Assembly (NCBI RefSeq): GCF_050920415.1
Contig: NZ_CP169309.1
Length of the DNA: 64,000 nucleotides
Reading direction: 5' to 3' (one strand)
Source of the DNA: Escherichia coli
GTDB lineage: Bacteria > Pseudomonadota > Gammaproteobacteria > Enterobacterales > Enterobacteriaceae
This document shows positions 1 through 6,981 of the stretch, piece after piece. Position 1 is the stretch's first letter. Each line of letters opens with the position of its first letter. The notes below the pieces were generated by a model. It saw only the letters and a list, made by a program, of their open reading frames with translations. It did no database searches and was not told where the DNA came from. The translations under genes were made by a program, and so were the position numbers.

Positions 1-134
1 CCTAATTGCTCCGCCAGATTTTTAGTAATCAGGCGTGCGCCAGGTTTTAGTGCGCCAATACTTAGTTGATGTTTCAGGTCGTTCTCAACCTGCATAGTCA
101 AACTGACATGTTTCATTTTTTCCGTTCCAGGCAT
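1..134 (-). CDS. mcbR: GntR-family transcriptional regulator McbR (YncC), 5' portion only; gene continues beyond window start
   Basis: Reverse-complement of 1-134 translates MPGTEKMKHVSLTMQVENDLKHQLSIGALKPGARLITKNLAEQL, matching the remembered McbR N-terminus; position next to curA agrees with K-12 order. Confidence 0.7.
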   Translation of the reverse strand, partial: MPGTEKMKHVSLTMQVENDLKHQLSIGALKPGARLITKNLAEQL

Positions 135-332
135 TTTACTTCCTTCGCGTGTTTTCTTTCCGACCCTGCCTGCATAGCAGAAGGCGTTCACCTGGTGTGT
201 TAAAATGAATAATCATAAGCCACTCACCTTTGTAGTTATTAGCAGCAGAACAATGATGTGGTCAGTTAATTAAAGCTGAAAATAAGCTTTTTGCCTGGAT
301 TTTTATGGCGGCCTTACGCCGCCGTTGAAACT

Positions 333-1370
333 TTAATCATCATCCGCCACGCGGATCACCACTTTGCCAAAGTTTTTACCCTTCAGCAGGCCGATAAACG
401 TCTGTGGGGCGTTCTCCAAACCGTTGGTAATTTGTTCACGATAGTGAATTTTCCCCTCTTTCACCCATTGTCCCATCTCCTGCTGAAACTCATGGATACG
501 GTGACCATAATCCTGACCAATAATAAACCCTTGCAAGCGAATGCGTTTTTTCAGCACCGTTGCCATCAACAGGGGTAAACGATCCGGACCGGGTGGTAGC
601 TCTGTAGCGTTATAGCTGCTCACTAAGCCGCAGACGGGAATGCGCGCGGATGTATTGAGTAACGGTAGCACCGCATCAAATACCTTACCGCCAACGTTTT
701 CATAATAAATATCGATACCTTTTGGGCACGCTTTCGCCAGTTGCTCGGCAAAATCATCCGCGTGATGGTCAAGGCAGACATCGAAGCCCAACACCTCGGT
801 AGCATGGCGGCATTTTTCCGCGCCACCAGCTACCCCCACCACTCTGCAACCTTTAAGTTTGCCGATTTGCCCCACCGTCGCCCCCACTGGTCCTGTCGCT
901 GCAGCTACCACCAACGTTTCGCCTTCTTTGGGCTGACCGATATCCAGCAGGCCCATATAAGCGGTAAAGCCTGGCATCCCCAGCACACCCAGCGACCACG
1001 ATGGATTTTGCGGATGATCGCCAAGTTTCACCAAATCATCACCACTGGATATGTCATAGTCCTGCCATCCACTGTAGCCCAGCACCCAGTCACCAGGCTG
1101 GTAATCAGGATGATTTGACTCCACGACACGGCTCACCGTACCGCCGACTATCACGCCGTCAATGTCAACCGGCGGTGAATAAGATGGCTCATCGCTCATA
1201 CGTCCACGCATATACGGGTCCAGTGACAAATAAACTGTGCGCAGTAATACCTGTCCTTCACCCGGTGTGGCGACATCATCTTCTTCAAGACGAAAATTCT
1301 CCGGAACCGGCGCGCCATGCGGACGCGAGGCCAGAACCCAACGGCGGTTACGCTGCTTTTGTTGCCCCAT
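333..1370 (-). CDS. curA: NADPH-dependent curcumin/dihydrocurcumin reductase (zinc-independent MDR family), 345 aa
   Basis: ORF 333..1463 (-); product matches CurA from internal Met MGQQKQRNRRWVLASRP (ATG at 1370); upstream part of ORF treated as over-extension. Confidence 0.92.
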   Translation of the reverse strand: MGQQKQRNRRWVLASRPHGAPVPENFRLEEDDVATPGEGQVLLRTVYLSLDPYMRGRMSDEPSYSPPVDIDGVIVGGTVSRVVESNHPDYQPGDWVLGYSGWQDYDISSGDDLVKLGDHPQNPSWSLGVLGMPGFTAYMGLLDIGQPKEGETLVVAAATGPVGATVGQIGKLKGCRVVGVAGGAEKCRHATEVLGFDVCLDHHADDFAEQLAKACPKGIDIYYENVGGKVFDAVLPLLNTSARIPVCGLVSSYNATELPPGPDRLPLLMATVLKKRIRLQGFIIGQDYGHRIHEFQQEMGQWVKEGKIHYREQITNGLENAPQTFIGLLKGKNFGKVVIRVADDD

Positions 1371-1550
1371 AATGCTCTCCTGTGCTTTTGGCATGAATCC
1401 ATCAATAGTAGCAGGCTCGCAGGATTGGTTTTGTTTGCAGTCGTCACATCCCCTCTGCAACACGCAATAATTTCATCGAGGAATCCGTTGCTTCGGGCTG
1501 TTTTCGATAGTATTGATAACGTCATTATCATTATTTTATCGAGGCCAGAC

Positions 1551-2066
1551 ATGTCCATCCGTTTTGCCCGCAAAGCCGACTGTGCTGCCATTGCGGAAAT
1601 TTATAACCACGCCGTGTTGTATACGGCGGCTATCTGGAATGACCAAACGGTGGATGCAGATAACCGCATTGCCTGGTTTGAAGCGCGGACCATAGCAGGT
1701 TATCCGGTGCTGGTGAGTGAAGAAGATGGCGTGGTGACGGGATATGCCTCGTTTGGCGACTGGCGTAGTTTCGATGGTTTTCGCCATACCGTGGAGCATT
1801 CGGTTTATGTCCATCCTGATCATCAGGGCAAAGGTCTTGGGCGTAAATTGTTAAGCCGATTGATTGATGAAGCGCGGGATTGCGGGAAGCATGTTATGGT
1901 CGCCGGGATCGAATCGCAAAATCAGGCTTCGCTGCATCTCCACCAGTCGCTGGGATTTGTCATCACCGCACAAATGCCGCAGGTGGGCACTAAATTTGGG
2001 CGCTGGCTGGATCTGACATTTATGCAGTTGCAACTCGACGAACGCAGTGAACCGGACGCAATCTGA
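1551..2066 (+). CDS. mnaT: L-amino acid N-acyltransferase (GNAT family) MnaT/YncA
   Basis: ORF 1317..2066 (+); MnaT-like sequence begins at internal ATG 1551 (MSIRFARKADCAAIAEIYNH...); stop overlaps ydcZ start (ATGA). Confidence 0.92.
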   Translation: MSIRFARKADCAAIAEIYNHAVLYTAAIWNDQTVDADNRIAWFEARTIAGYPVLVSEEDGVVTGYASFGDWRSFDGFRHTVEHSVYVHPDHQGKGLGRKLLSRLIDEARDCGKHVMVAGIESQNQASLHLHQSLGFVITAQMPQVGTKFGRWLDLTFMQLQLDERSEPDAI

Positions 2067-2515
2067 TGAATCAGTCGCTTACCCTTGCCTTTTTGATTGC
2101 CGCAGGGATTGGTCTGGTCGTCCAGAACACGCTAATGGTGCGCATCACCCAGACCTCCTCTACCATTCTCATCGCCATGTTGCTGAACTCACTGGTAGGG
2201 ATTGTGCTCTTTGTTTCTATTTTATGGTTTAAACAAGGCATGGCGGGGTTTGGCGAACTGGTGTCCAGCGTACGCTGGTGGACACTTATACCCGGCTTGC
2301 TGGGATCTTTTTTTGTCTTCGCCAGTATCAGCGGATATCAGAATTTGGGAGCGGCGACAACTATTGCAGTACTGGTCGCCAGCCAACTGATTGGTGGTCT
2401 GGTGCTGGATATCTTCCGCAGTCATGGCGTACCACTACGGGCGTTGATCGGCCCAATTTGTGGCGCAATTTTACTTGTGGTTGGTGCCTGGCTGGTGGCC
2501 AGGCGCACATTTTAA
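2066..2515 (+). CDS. ydcZ: Inner-membrane protein YdcZ (DMT-like, 149 aa)
   Basis: ORF 2066..2515, ATG start, hydrophobic multi-TM sequence MNQSLTLAFLIAAGIGLVVQ...; coupled to mnaT. Confidence 0.9.
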   Translation: MNQSLTLAFLIAAGIGLVVQNTLMVRITQTSSTILIAMLLNSLVGIVLFVSILWFKQGMAGFGELVSSVRWWTLIPGLLGSFFVFASISGYQNLGAATTIAVLVASQLIGGLVLDIFRSHGVPLRALIGPICGAILLVVGAWLVARRTF

Positions 2516-2749
2516 TCAGAGGATGGTGCCGCCTTTGGTTAACTGTTCGTGGCGCGCTTCCATATCTTCTTTATGCTTGCGACCGTGATGGGCGATCGCT
2601 GTGCGCAGACGCTGCTGCTGGGTGTAGCGATCTTCCCGACTTAACTCCGCGTCATCGCTCAGGGCGATTAATAATTCGTTCATATGGGCAATGACGCTCT
2701 CTTCAATCGCGGCATCCACGCGCGCGATGACTTCATCCAGATGCGACAT
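2516..2749 (-). CDS. ydcY: Small protein YdcY (DUF2526), 77 aa
   Basis: ORF 2516..2791 (-); YdcY sequence begins at internal Met MSHLDEVIARVDAAIEES... Confidence 0.85.
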   Translation of the reverse strand: MSHLDEVIARVDAAIEESVIAHMNELLIALSDDAELSREDRYTQQQRLRTAIAHHGRKHKEDMEARHEQLTKGGTIL

Positions 2750-2834
2750 ACTTTCTCCTAAGCCACTTGTGAAATTTATCGATTCATCCAAATGATATAA
2801 GTCTGCGTGGTGCCGTCAAGCCAGTGCGTAAGAT

Positions 2835-3008
2835 TTAAAACAGTGAAAACAACAGCGCCACCGGGAAACTCATCGGCCATGTTGCCCCCACCAGAAAGGC
2901 GCTTAAGAAACGGATGCGTTTCTTATCGTGAGAAAGAAACCAGGTGATAAGAAATGCGATTGCTGCCATAACCGCATAAAAAACAAGCATGTGTTGATAG
3001 AGAGACAT
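2835..3008 (-). CDS. ortT: Orphan membrane toxin OrtT (YdcX), GhoT-like, 57 aa
   Basis: ORF 2835..3083 (-); internal Met MSLYQHMLVFYAVMAAIAFLITWFLSHDKKRIRFLSAFLVGATWPMSFPVALLFSLF matches OrtT. Confidence 0.85.
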   Translation of the reverse strand: MSLYQHMLVFYAVMAAIAFLITWFLSHDKKRIRFLSAFLVGATWPMSFPVALLFSLF

Positions 3009-3202
3009 GTACGGGCGTCCAGCCAGATGAATAAAACGCGCGCAAATATGCGTCATTTTTTGACGTGCATCAAGTTTTTTCACCAGTTTGAGAAAAAATC
3101 ATCAAACAGCAACTTGCCCTTATCCATCTTCAGAATGAGTATTATTGCGGATTTTCTTAACCCGTACTATACACATAGGGGCAATGATAAAAGGTGGCAA
3201 AA

Positions 3203-3298
3203 ATGAATGTTTCCAGTAGAACTGTAGTACTGATAAATGTCTTTGCTGCTGTTGGTTTGTTTACTCTTATCTCTATGAGATTTGGCTGGTTTATTTGA
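3203..3298 (+). CDS. yncL: Small membrane protein YncL (31 aa)
   Basis: Hand-translated ATG at 3203: MNVSSRTVVLINVFAAVGLFTLISMRFGWFI, stop TGA 3296-3298; below the ORF-track length cutoff; matches remembered YncL. Confidence 0.75.
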   Translation: MNVSSRTVVLINVFAAVGLFTLISMRFGWFI

Positions 3299-3697
3299 TG
3301 TAGTGATTTTGCACGCAGCACGTACTGTCAGAGAAATCACTGCTCTGACAGTACGCAAGATCATCTCATACTCTCCAGGTTTACAACATTATCCTTAATA
3401 TTTACTTCTTTTTGCTGACATCTACATTGAAATAAGTAGAAAACATCCCCCTCCTATCGTCCTTACAGACAGCTTACTGATTCAAAGGGAACTTTGTTTT
3501 CACATTTTTCTATCATCATTACTTTAGACGCGCGGGGTCTATAAATGCTTTGTACTTTCAGGGAATAAAGTAAATATAAAAAGATGGCATAAAGTTTATG
3601 CATGGCAGGATGTTTGCAACCTCCTTGAGGACGCTGTCCCATTGAAATTGCAAACCCCGCACTGGTTATCTGCCCATTTATCATGTAAAACAGACAA

Positions 3698-4507
3698 TTA
3701 TAGGTCTCTGAATATCTCAGAAAGATTGAATTTTTTATAGTCCCTCTCTTGGATATTTCCATTTGATATCAATCGATTCATCTCTTCAACAAAATAATTT
3801 ATATCATCACATTTGTTATTATCCGGAAGATCTGAATAATTATAATTCCACCACTTTATTCTCAACAATTCATCAATAATATTTGAATCAAATCTAAATC
3901 TGATTATTTTTGCAGGAACTCCTGCAACTATGGCATATGGTGGCACATCTTTGGTAACAACGGAATTGGCAGCAATAACAGCACCATCACCTATTGCGAT
4001 GCCACCTTTCAATACAACATCATTTCCTATCCAGACATCGTTTCCTATAATCGGATTTTCAGGTTTGGTAATGAATGGTTTCAATGTCCATGGCCGTTCG
4101 AACTCACTCAAGGCAAATTTATCAAATTCACCGTTATAAGTCATCATGTGAGTAGTAAAACGATTCATAGGATGATTTCCACCCATTATTTTTACATTTG
4201 ATGCAATACTACAAAATCGTCCTATATGTATATTCCCTGAAAAATGACAAGTTGGAAATGAAAATGCACCTACACTGGAAAAATTTTTTACAGGCATTGT
4301 TGAATATTCTTCAGCAATAACATTCTCTTCAATTGATATTTTGTCACCTTTTGAGAAAAGAAATAAATTCCTTTCTTTGTAAGACTTCTTCCCTTTATGA
4401 TTTAAAAATATTTTATTATCCATGCAAAATTCAAAGTGTTTTTTCGTCCACCTAAAGGTAATGGTTTTATTTTTATCTTCCGTGAATTTATATAACTGTA
4501 CGTTCAT
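3698..4507 (-). CDS. Hexapeptide-repeat (left-handed beta-helix) O-acetyltransferase, xenobiotic acetyltransferase (XAT/CatB/Vat)-like, with N- and C-terminal extensions; start codon uncertain
   Basis: ORF 3698..4507 (-), 269 aa; core ...NHPMNRFTTH...GNDVWIGNDVVLKGGIAIGDGAVIAANSVVTKDVPPYAIVAGVPAKIIRFRF is a typical XAT hexapeptide signature; strongly AT-rich unlike flanking genes; not recalled at this site in K-12. Confidence 0.8.
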   Translation of the reverse strand: MNVQLYKFTEDKNKTITFRWTKKHFEFCMDNKIFLNHKGKKSYKERNLFLFSKGDKISIEENVIAEEYSTMPVKNFSSVGAFSFPTCHFSGNIHIGRFCSIASNVKIMGGNHPMNRFTTHMMTYNGEFDKFALSEFERPWTLKPFITKPENPIIGNDVWIGNDVVLKGGIAIGDGAVIAANSVVTKDVPPYAIVAGVPAKIIRFRFDSNIIDELLRIKWWNYNYSDLPDNNKCDDINYFVEEMNRLISNGNIQERDYKKFNLSEIFRDL

Positions 4508-4740
4508 ACTAAAGACATCTACTTTTACTTATAAATTATTAGTTGAATAACGATACTCTAAAGTCTTCTATGAATCAACCATGACAGGATGAAAAATCAC
4601 CATCATACCTTTAGCGCATAATAGTCGTCTAACTTTTCCACTCGTTTTAATGTATTCATTCTTATTAATCGCCAATGACTCAAAACTTCAAACGATAGTG
4701 GCCATCATATAATTTCATATAACAGCCACTAACATTTAAC

Positions 4741-6165
4741 TTAATGTTTAACCATGACATGGCGGACGACGGTGTAATCCTCCAGCCCATAAAGTGACAT
4801 ATCCTTGCCGTAACCAGAAAGTTTCTGTCCACCGTGCGGCATTTCACTTACCAGCATAAAATGGGTATTGACCCAGGTACAACCATATTGCAGCCGTGCG
4901 CTGACACGATGCGCCCTGCCCACATCTTTAGTCCATACCGAAGATGCAAGTCCGTACTGGCTGTCATTCGCCCAGTTCACCACCTGTTCTTCATTGTCAA
5001 AGGCCGTCACGCTCACCACCGGACCAAATACCTCTTTTTGCACGATGGCATCGTCCTGTAACGCGCCAGCCAGCAGCGTAGGCGCATAGTAATAACCATT
5101 ACCCTTGCGCTTTTCACCACCGGTGATCACTTTGATGTGCCCTGTCTCTTTCGCCTCTTCTACCGCCTTGCTGACACGTTCGAGATGTGCCAGCGAACTT
5201 AACGGTCCAAGCTCCGTGGACTCGTCATCCGGCGCACCAGATTTTAACGTTGCCACTGCAGCACCGAGTTTTTCCACCAGCGTATCGTAAATACCTTTTT
5301 GCGCGTAGATCCGACAAGCCGCAGTACAATCCTGTCCGGCATTGTAATAGCCAAAAGTGCGAACACCTTCGACCACTGCTTCAATATCAGCATCATCAAA
5401 AACAATCACTGGCGCTTTGCCACCAAGTTCCATATGAGTACGCTTAATAGACGGCGCTGTATGGCTGATGATGTGCTCGCCGGTGGCGATAGAGCCCGTC
5501 AGCGACACCATCCGCACTTTGGGATGTCCGGTCAGCGGATCGCCCACTGTTTTGCCTCTGCCAAACAGCACATTAATCACGCCAGCCGGGAAGATATCTT
5601 TCGCCAGTTCAGCCAGCTTCAACGCTGTCAGCGGCGTAATTTCTGATGGTTTAAGCACTACGCAGTTCCCTGCCGCCAGCGCCGGAGCCAGTTTCCACGC
5701 GGCCATCATCAGCGGATAATTCCACGGTGCGATAGAAGCCACGACCCCCAACGGATCCCGACGGATCATTGAAGTATGACCTTCAAGGTATTCGCCGGCC
5801 GCCAGACCATTGAGGCAGCGCGCCGCCCCGGCGAAAAAGCGAAAGACATCGACAATCGCCGGAATTTCATCATTGAACGCACTATGCAGCGGTTTGCCAC
5901 AATTACGGGACTCCAATTCGGCAAAAACCTGACCATTTTCTTCAATAACATCGGCCAGTTTCAGCAGGCATTCCGCACGCGCTTTCGGCGTGGTTTGCCC
6001 CCATTCGGCAAATGCTGCATCTGCCGCGCGAACAGCAGCATCCACCTGCTCTGCGGATGCCTCGGCAATCTCCAGTAAAACGTCCCCCGTTGCCGGATTA
6101 TAGACAGGCTGTTTTTCCCCTTCGCCGCTAACCAGTTCTCCGTTAATCAGTAACTTATGTTGCAT
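4741..6165 (-). CDS. patD: Gamma-aminobutyraldehyde dehydrogenase PatD (YdcW), 474 aa
   Basis: ORF 4741..6165 (-), [29 protein letters not shown]..., aldehyde dehydrogenase family. Confidence 0.95.
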
Positions 6166-6186
6166 AGCATATTCCTGTATCAGTGG

Positions 6187-6981
6187 TTATTGACCATTGT
6201 CGCCTTCGCGGGTTAGCCACCAGGCCCCCAGGATCGGCAAGGTTGTTACCAACATAACCAGCAGTGCCACCACGTTGGTTACCGGTACATCACGTGGTCG
6301 CCCAAGCTGATTGAGCAACCACAACGGTAACGTTCGTTCATGACCTGCCGTAAAGGTCGTCACGATGATTTCATCGAACGACAAGGCAAACGCCAGCATT
6401 CCTCCTGCCAGTAGCGCCGAACTGAGATTCGGCAACACCACGTAGCGGAAGGTTTGCCAGCCATTGGCCCCAAGATCCATTGACGCCTCAACCAGACTCC
6501 AGGAGGTACGGCGAAAACGGGCGATGACATTGTTAAACACCACCACTACGCAAAAAGTCGCATGACCGACCACGATGGTGAAAAATCCCGGCTCCAGATT
6601 GATGGTTTTAAAAGCAGTTAATAGCGCCAGACCAGTGACAATGCCCGGCAGCGCAATGGGCAGCAGCAATAGCAATGAAATGGCGCTTTTACCGAAAAAG
6701 TCCCGACGCCACAGCGCAGCAGCGGCCAGTGTCCCTAATACCAGCGCAATTAATGTCGCCAGCGCCGCCACTTTAAGTGACAGCGTCACGGCTTCAAGAA
6801 TATCACTACGCTGTGCTGCCACGCTAAACCAGCGCAGCGTCAGGCCTTGCGGTGGAAAACTAAACGCTGCATCTTCGGTATTAAAAGCATAGGCGGCGAT
6901 AATCAGGATGGGAAAATGAAGGAAAACCACGCCGCCCCAGGCCGCCAGTTTAAGGAAAAACGGTGCGCGTTCAGAGTGCAT
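6187..6981 (-). CDS. ydcV: ABC transporter permease YdcV
   Basis: ORF 6187..6981 (-), 264 aa, multi-TM permease; in operon ydcSTUV-patD. Confidence 0.92.

Follow-up and report, generated by a model that had tools for sequence, protein, structure and literature searches.

What does an AT-rich acetyltransferase gene do that stands alone between two core genes of Escherichia coli, and how long has it been there? The question is raised by a stretch of 64,000 nucleotides from contig NZ_CP169309.1 (hereafter the window), in which an open reading frame (ORF) of 269 amino acids (aa) occupies positions 3698-4507 of the minus strand, between yncL and patD. The initial annotation, made from the letters alone, had described an accessory AT-rich islet encoding a hexapeptide protein of the xenobiotic acetyltransferase (XAT) class, either a resistance determinant or a modifier of surface polysaccharide. 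The gene was already known in RefSeq under a generic name. What is new here is its placement, by sequence comparison, with a clade of Campylobacter sialate O-acetyltransferase (SOAT) and lipopolysaccharide (LPS) cluster proteins instead of with CatB or Vat, and the recognition of the islet as a long-standing haplotype, kept by selection, that characterizes certain E. coli lineages. O-acetylation of an envelope glycan is the best reading of its function, at roughly even odds. A search of the literature for the RefSeq name and for a link between phylogroup B1 and patD returned nothing relevant to the locus.

The ORF list contains the 269-aa frame as described, and all the sequence motifs quoted for it were confirmed. 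Its GC content is 0.317, with 0.26 at third codon positions (GC3), against 0.53 and 0.53 in patD, and windowed GC lies at 0.28-0.39 over approximately 3000-4800 with flanks at 0.50-0.57. The same coding sequence (CDS) is called by RefSeq in NZ_CP169399 (strain MFDS1022581), a genome to which positions 2800-5000 are 100% identical, where the product WP_001102745.1 is named “CatB-related O-acetyltransferase” and the gene order is curA, mnaT, ydcZ, ydcY, ortT, yncL, WP_001102745.1, patD, ydcV, ydcU, ydcT. K-12 MG1655 has a patD-yncL spacer of 96 bp without a gene, in agreement with the initial annotation.

Fold, active site and relatives of the encoded protein

Membership of the XAT class is indicated both by sequence and by predicted structure. 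The Pfam models Hexapep (E=1.8e-9) and Hexapep_2 (E=7.5e-6) were matched. Among solved relatives VatD and VatA rank first: residues 28-192 of the 209 in VatD align to residues 61-230 of the E. coli protein with 35% identity over 170 residues (107 bits), VatA is about 35% identical, and the CatB enzymes (27-32% identity for solved structures) and ApmA come after them. The segment GGNHPMNRF is aligned to GANHRMDGS of VatD, covering the catalytic NH motif, and LLRIKWWNY to LLDIKWWNW. His112 is thus the counterpart of VatD His82, VatA His87 and ApmA His135, the catalytic residue carried on the extended loop (PMC7885111). Comparison with the Vat active site covered this His and the oxyanion Tyr (VatD Tyr37, VatA Tyr42). 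In an alignment of 38 homologues His112 is invariant, as are W159, W219 and W220; the Tyr position corresponds by sequence alignment to Thr70 and is variable across the family. An AlphaFold2 (AF2) model built from the multiple sequence alignment of the 38 homologues (mean predicted local distance difference test score 88.6) displays the regular short-strand pattern of a left-handed beta-helix (LbH), helices at 208-217 and 236-248, and an N-terminus in which a single short strand and a single helix precede a loop of low confidence. Searched against the PDB with Foldseek, its top 50 matches were all VatD, VatA, CatB, PaXAT or ApmA at probability 1.00, with E ~1e-11 for VatD and VatA.

The hexapeptide LbH, the extended loop with its catalytic His, the C-terminal WW helix region and the overall fold are all present, so that by alignment and model the protein is a true XAT-class left-handed beta-helix enzyme, and intact. 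The class assignment of the initial annotation is thereby supported, while the concern that the core might be a degraded fragment does not apply, since the catalytic and structural residues are all kept and the frame is unbroken. Two of its details need correction. The ~70 N-terminal and ~55 C-terminal extra residues were an overestimate; the excess over a canonical XAT is ~33 and ~22 residues in the VatD alignment. Moreover, the Trp/Tyr/Asn-rich tail that was read as an addition, IKWWNYNY, is the standard XAT C-terminal helix (IKWWNW in VatD). The extensions specific to the subfamily cover approximately residues 1-60 and 231-269. No signal peptide is present in the protein sequence.

The scores against named families are uniformly low. 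The best single NCBIfam match, the phosphonate-metabolism hexapeptide transferase TIGR03308, reached 131.9 bits against a cut-off of 201.65, and Vat (NF000311) gave 126.7 against 300, CatB (NF000490) 104.1 against 350, and ApmA (NF000084) 81 against 550 with the match restricted to residues 70-230. Every score lies below its curated cut-off; the protein is an XAT but a member of no named XAT family. There were no phn genes near the gene at any locus examined. The similarity to LacA, Maa and WbbJ is confined to the final hexapeptide coil, some 50 residues (~150-205). Together with NeuO and OatWY these are likewise LbH sugar O-acetyltransferases dependent on acetyl-CoA, but they lack the extended loop and C-terminal helices of XATs and constitute a different subfamily; NeuO is encoded by a prophage-borne single gene (PMC3046976). 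No defence-system model was matched in PADLOC, and PHROGs returned only a family of unknown function.

Both extensions are present in full-length homologues of 255-280 aa, and the 38 aligned sequences remain collinear up to their C-termini. Such homologues were found in Atlantibacter, Citrobacter, Cedecea, Salmonella, Providencia, Kluyvera, Pectobacterium, Rahnella, Dickeya, Vibrio, Campylobacter and several Firmicutes. A neighbour-joining (NJ) tree with only three outgroup sequences (VatD, a Priestia Vat and CatB2) separated this extended family from them in 200 of 200 bootstraps; the CatB2 sequence used is 100% identical to an annotated catB2 gene. On this sequence evidence the protein falls into a separate “extended XAT” clade and outside the Vat and CatB resistance families. 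Among the matches listed by a profile scan of genome contigs with the family alignment, most were generic XATs from unrelated phyla, and the useful ones were loci L015, L017, L018, L020 and L027. In L018 (Helicobacter sp. MIT 05-5294), where the gene comes after glmS, and in the proteins P0137, P0141 and P0144, all epsilonproteobacterial, an extra N-terminal domain (PF28160) is fused, giving 370-420 aa.

Comparison with the characterized XATs shows where the protein departs from them. With Vat(D) and Vat(A) it shares the LbH core, the loop with the catalytic His and the IKWWNW/Y helix; it differs from them in its terminal additions, in Thr70 for Tyr, in its position outside Vat in the tree, and in being encoded by a chromosomal, lineage-inherited gene, Vat being plasmid-borne in Gram-positives. 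CatB and PaXAT, the source of the RefSeq name, have the same fold and catalytic His, but the E. coli protein lies outside CatB2 and its gene is not in integron cassettes or in the plasmid collection. ApmA, at 274 aa, is similar in length and also has an unusual N-terminal extension, which in ApmA comprises 82 residues with four strands and two helices (PMC7885111). The N-terminus of the E. coli model, with its single strand and helix, does not align with it.

Distribution, age and selection of the islet

The islet was found in 1155 of 5426 complete E. coli genomes (21%), once per genome and always at the yncL-patD site, in agreement with the view that it is accessory and missing from most E. 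coli. Two of 1160 matches in this search were on plasmid records. The plasmid collection held no close copy: the one good match, to a record of 4.9 Mb, is presumably to a chromosome wrongly labelled as plasmid, and the remainder were short XAT-core matches to vat and catB-like genes. In the phage collection no full-length relative was detected by tblastn, and the 3' non-coding stretch of the islet was unmatched. The exact protein WP_001102745.1 occurs on 175 contigs of the collection, and Shigella flexneri entries fall within its protein cluster. The product of the common allele is WP_000867987.1. Relative to the window, 5 genomes carry alleles at 98-100% identity, roughly 170, including E. 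coli 042, at ~92%, and roughly 920, including O104:H4, O111:H8, O103 and O121:H19 strains, at ~90.4%. Strain 042 is taken here to be of phylogroup D and the listed serotypes of phylogroup B1. The carriers therefore comprise strains presumed to be B1 and D, Shigella flexneri, and a rare divergent lineage that includes the window.

The islet junctions were identical in all four alleles aligned. Synonymous divergence (dS) of the acetyltransferase gene between the window and the other alleles, estimated by the Nei-Gojobori method, was 0.22-0.28 with a ratio of nonsynonymous to synonymous divergence (dN/dS) of 0.07-0.09, and dN/dS was 0.05-0.14 over all allele pairs. In patD of the same strains dS was 0.21-0.25, and dN/dS over all strain pairs 0.02-0.08. 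The equal dS of islet and patD, together with one common pair of junctions, implies that the islet is as old as the divergence of its flanks and was inherited with them. The recent insertion implied by the initial annotation is not supported by these values. The islet is under purifying selection, and it is an old, stably inherited single-gene haplotype, neither a recent mobile insertion nor, most probably, a decaying relic.

The 269-aa frame is intact in nearly all sampled genomes. In a few strains the islet is interrupted by the insertion sequences (IS) IS5 or IS1, for example in NZ_CP122507 (H7) and NZ_CP100933 (H82); the CDS of H82 is broken up, and one of its fragments bears the annotation “antibiotic acetyltransferase”. 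The core genes around the islet (ydcZ, patD and ydcV, within 2066-6981) were also unusually divergent, with dS of 0.13-0.26 to the O104:H4, 042 and 2012C-4221 alleles. This divergence, and the fact that only 5 of the 5426 genomes carry the islet allele of the window at an identity of at least 98%, point to a rare divergent haplotype of the whole region in the window strain.

Candidate functions of the enzyme

Evidence on function is provided by the neighbourhoods of relatives. In Campylobacter lari the homologue lies directly after neuA, behind genes for a sialyltransferase, neuB and neuC. In C. jejuni, a 276-aa relative (P0127) follows directly after cst, neuB, neuC and neuA, and its 3' neighbours are a glycosyltransferase gene on the opposite strand and a waaF-type heptosyltransferase gene, which is the orf11 position. 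Published work on the class A and B lipooligosaccharide (LOS) loci of C. jejuni places orf11, the gene of an experimentally characterized SOAT (a sialate 9-O-acetyltransferase), after neuA1 (orf10) (PMC2174954, PMC8319020, PMC3513307). Residues 45-269 of the E. coli protein, among them all of the C-terminal extension, align to P0127 in BLASTP at 38-39% identity and 142 bits; the score for VatD is 107 bits. Orf11 was described as a SOAT by Houliston et al. in 2006, as cited in the same papers. Its likeness to the E. coli protein extends to the architecture (276 versus 269 aa), the retained catalytic His-Pro motif and the shared tree clade; it differs in lying inside an LOS sialylation locus, the E. 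coli gene being solitary, and the first ~45 residues are unaligned. Within the P0127 protein cluster of 1560 sequences, many members are shortened to 137-256 aa, which suggests frequent inactivation of the gene in C. jejuni populations.

Further homologues are found inside the LPS-core (waa) cluster of Pectobacterium fontis, in two LPS-core clusters of Vibrio between waaA and heptosyltransferase genes (with a BLASTP alignment that reaches residue 262 of the E. coli protein), and in a wall-polysaccharide cluster of Enterococcus. In prophages, the Kluyvera homologue comes directly after tail-fibre and tail-fibre-assembly genes, that of Providencia adjoins a GT52-family glycosyltransferase gene, and that of Dickeya takes a cargo position adjoining a phage terminase gene. 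Integrons, resistance plasmids and antibiotic-biosynthesis clusters were not among the settings in which relatives were found. By analogy with these relatives, the gene product is read as a cytoplasmic glycan O-acetyltransferase of the XAT class, with a probability of about 0.5. Of the two options initially proposed, the surface-polysaccharide modifier is thus favoured by sialylation, LPS-core, wall-polysaccharide and prophage-cargo contexts, while the resistance option is not supported.

The enzyme would probably act as a trimeric left-handed beta-helix that uses acetyl-CoA, with the His on the extended loop as general base. Acetate would be transferred to a sugar hydroxyl of an envelope glycoconjugate during assembly at the cytoplasmic face of the inner membrane, where LPS and LOS units are assembled; that side, together with the lack of a signal peptide, suggests the cytoplasmic site of action. 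Most islet-bearing E. coli make no sialic acid, so that the acceptor probably differs from that of Orf11.

Several observations weigh against a glycan acceptor. In E. coli, Citrobacter, Cedecea/Enterobacter and Rahnella the gene stands alone, without glycan genes in its vicinity, so that for the closest homologues (>70% identity) context does not point directly to a function. Identity to the informative relatives is no higher than 36-55%, and XATs of differing substrate are about as far apart (VatD, 35%). The islet is spread across many O-serotypes; its acceptor therefore cannot be serotype-specific, making a serotype-specific O-antigen an unlikely target. To our knowledge, no O-acetylated conserved core structure has been described in E. 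coli. The separation in the tree depends on three outgroup sequences, and that P0127 is Orf11 we infer from synteny and published gene order, not from the deposited sequence.

A more specific form of the glycan reading is unlikely but would have wider consequences: the enzyme might O-acetylate a glycan common to all carriers, such as the LPS inner core, enterobacterial common antigen, another shared polymer or scavenged sialic acid, and thereby, as a lineage-marking envelope modifier, alter phage adsorption or immune recognition in lineages with many Shiga-toxigenic and enteroaggregative members. It would then be the first of the Campylobacter SOAT clade to be given a role in E. coli, and would mark an overlooked difference in envelope chemistry between B1/D and K-12-like strains. 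Among the glycan O-acetyltransferases of the clade, Campylobacter Orf11 shapes ganglioside mimicry. If a shared envelope glycan is modified in E. coli, an unrecognized lineage-specific surface difference would exist that bears on serology, on interaction with the host and on susceptibility to phages. The gene is carried by about one fifth of sequenced E. coli, among them O104:H4, O111, O103 and O121 strains, 042 and Shigella flexneri. Interest would rise only with a gene-dependent O-acetyl group on such a glycan. If the glycan reading is false, the gene becomes one more orphan accessory enzyme; the annotation is corrected either way.

Among the alternatives to a glycan acceptor, a free small molecule is the least doubtful. 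A LacA- or Maa-like O-acetyltransferase of sugars, metabolites or xenobiotics might acetylate a non-metabolizable or toxic hydroxyl compound for exclusion or detoxification. The solitary position in E. coli, Citrobacter, Cedecea and Rahnella would suit a self-contained one-enzyme function, small-molecule acceptors are known in the XAT class (PMC7885111), and the best NCBIfam match is a phosphonate-metabolism family, though below its cut-off (132 of 202 bits). However, none of the relatives examined is associated with a small-molecule pathway, be it catabolic, transport or biosynthetic; glycan clusters or prophage cargo positions make up eight of the contexts, and the similarity to LacA, Maa and WbbJ does not extend beyond a single coil.

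A latent or low-level acetyltransferase of chloramphenicol, streptogramin A or an aminocyclitol is improbable, even though the RefSeq name “CatB-related”, and sometimes “antibiotic acetyltransferase”, invites such a reading. The nearest solved structures and top named families are indeed VatD, VatA, CatB and ApmA, the catalytic His is kept, and ApmA is an N-terminally extended XAT that gained new antibiotic substrates (PMC7885111). Yet the scores fall 2.4- to 7-fold under the curated equivalog cut-offs (Vat 127/300, CatB 104/350 and ApmA 81/550 bits), and P0127, a member of the SOAT clade at the orf11 position, displays the same sub-threshold Vat/CatB/TIGR03308 pattern and bears the same “CatB-related” name, indicating that matches and label reflect fold and not substrate. 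Furthermore, the protein branches outside Vat and CatB in the NJ tree, its oxyanion Tyr is not conserved, and a plasmid, integron or transposon location was not found apart from the two matches on plasmid records. E. coli is in any case intrinsically insensitive to streptogramins, and we know of no intrinsic chloramphenicol resistance in B1 strains. The initial suggestion of a resistance determinant is accordingly unsupported.

It is very improbable that the gene is a relic, without function and decaying after a horizontal transfer long ago. Such AT-rich DNA is typically silenced by H-NS, the searches for a promoter, a Shine-Dalgarno sequence and a terminator of the gene gave nothing convincing, and copies that are truncated or disrupted by IS5 or IS1 exist; against this stand the low dN/dS (0.05-0.14, at dS up to 0.28), the frame that is intact in nearly all genomes sampled, and the retention of all catalytic and structural invariants. 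Finally, a role as the last accessory gene of the ydcSTUV-patD polyamine operon, co-transcribed with patD and acting on a polyamine-pathway intermediate, is scarcely credible: the gene follows patD on the same strand at a distance of 233 bp, and no terminator-like site was found in the interval, which makes read-through from the operon possible, but 79% of E. coli have the operon without it, the neighbourhoods in all other genera examined are unrelated, with no homologue beside patD or polyamine genes, and all characterized XATs except ApmA O-acetylate hydroxyls.

Boundaries and surroundings of the islet

In blastn comparison with the empty site of E. coli C, the left flank stops at ~3404 and the right flank resumes at ~4740-4741, delimiting an islet of 1336 bp with a GC content of 0.33. 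The features are collected in Table 1.

Table 1. Features of the yncL-patD interval in the window.
Feature	Coordinates	Strand	Basis and remarks
yncL, left core flank	3203..3298	+	RefSeq annotation carried over from locus L002
Direct repeat, left copy TTAATATTTA	3395..3404		Empty-site comparison, four-allele alignment
AT-rich islet	3405..4740		blastn against empty site, four-allele alignment, population counts, GC
3' non-coding stretch	3405..3697		292 bp, GC 0.38; kept in four aligned E. coli haplotypes
Acetyltransferase gene	3698..4507	-	ORF list, RefSeq CDS; catalytic His112, extended loop ~113-150, WW219-220 in C-terminal helix
5' leader/promoter-proximal stretch	4508..4594	-	blastn to Citrobacter loci L004-L006 reaches window position 4594
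Remaining spacer, patD stop to gene	4595..4740		Non-coding; indels between E. coli alleles; terminator-like site not found
Direct repeat, right copy TTAATGTTTA	4741..4750		Overlaps patD stop codon (4741-4743); empty-site comparison, four-allele alignment
patD, right core flank	4741..6165	-	ORF list, RefSeq; same strand as acetyltransferase gene and directly upstream of it

The junctions carry an imperfect 10-bp direct repeat that matches at 9 of 10 positions, of which the empty site has a single copy. It is compatible both with an old insertion and with a deletion between microhomologies. The repeat search revealed no terminal inverted repeats or IS-like ends in the islet, and its ORF list contained no transposase, integrase or second credible gene; with the junction repeat as its sole such feature, the islet does not qualify as a mobile island or insertion element. 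A mechanical ORF at 3463-3762 on the minus strand, overlapping the 3' end of the acetyltransferase gene, was rejected as a second gene, being of low complexity and not shared with other genera.

Conservation with the Citrobacter homologue (77%) covers the gene and the leader, and the inclusion of ~87 bp upstream of the ATG suggests that the gene travels with its own leader. Within the leader a weak sigma-70-like match runs from 4562 to 4535; the promoter scan gave 7 sites against 8.0 expected, which is not above chance. Terminator counts were likewise at chance, and none was located between patD and the gene or 3' of the gene. The 3' non-coding stretch was not common to the homologous loci compared in other genera and had no Rfam or phage match; an Rfam scan of 2500-5200 returned one sub-threshold match to a miRNA family and nothing else.

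In addition to the genera with solitary loci named above, the homologue of Salmonella also stands alone, beside pagK, as does that of Enterobacter sp. Ag1. The homologue is immediately downstream of a same-strand gene for a methyl-accepting chemotaxis protein in Cedecea (L007, L008), Enterobacter sp. Ag1 (L015) and Rahnella (L011, L012), an adjacency in three genera that may be a coincidence or a shared transfer unit. In Providencia rettgeri (L009, L010) the homologue and a divergent GT52-family glycosyltransferase gene lie in a prophage accessory region, beside DarT/DarG-type genes in L009 and beside reverse-transcriptase and AAA-ATPase genes in L010, a mixed cargo and defence hotspot.

At 3321-3355, 23 nt past the yncL stop, a perfect 13-bp inverted repeat with a 9-nt loop (CGTACTGTCAGAG...CTCTGACAGTACG) is present in islet-bearing and empty haplotypes; in K-12-like genomes it lies between the convergent yncL and patD. 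As it has no T-run, it is not a canonical intrinsic terminator. At 0.487, the GC content of the 64-kb window as a whole is lower than that of the sampled core genes (0.50-0.57), and further AT-rich accessory segments are probably present elsewhere in it. Just left of the junction, at 3374-3390, the islet-bearing and the empty haplotypes differ by six substitutions within 14 nt (TCCAGGTTTACAAC versus TTACGATCTGCAAT), suggesting that the two have long been separate.

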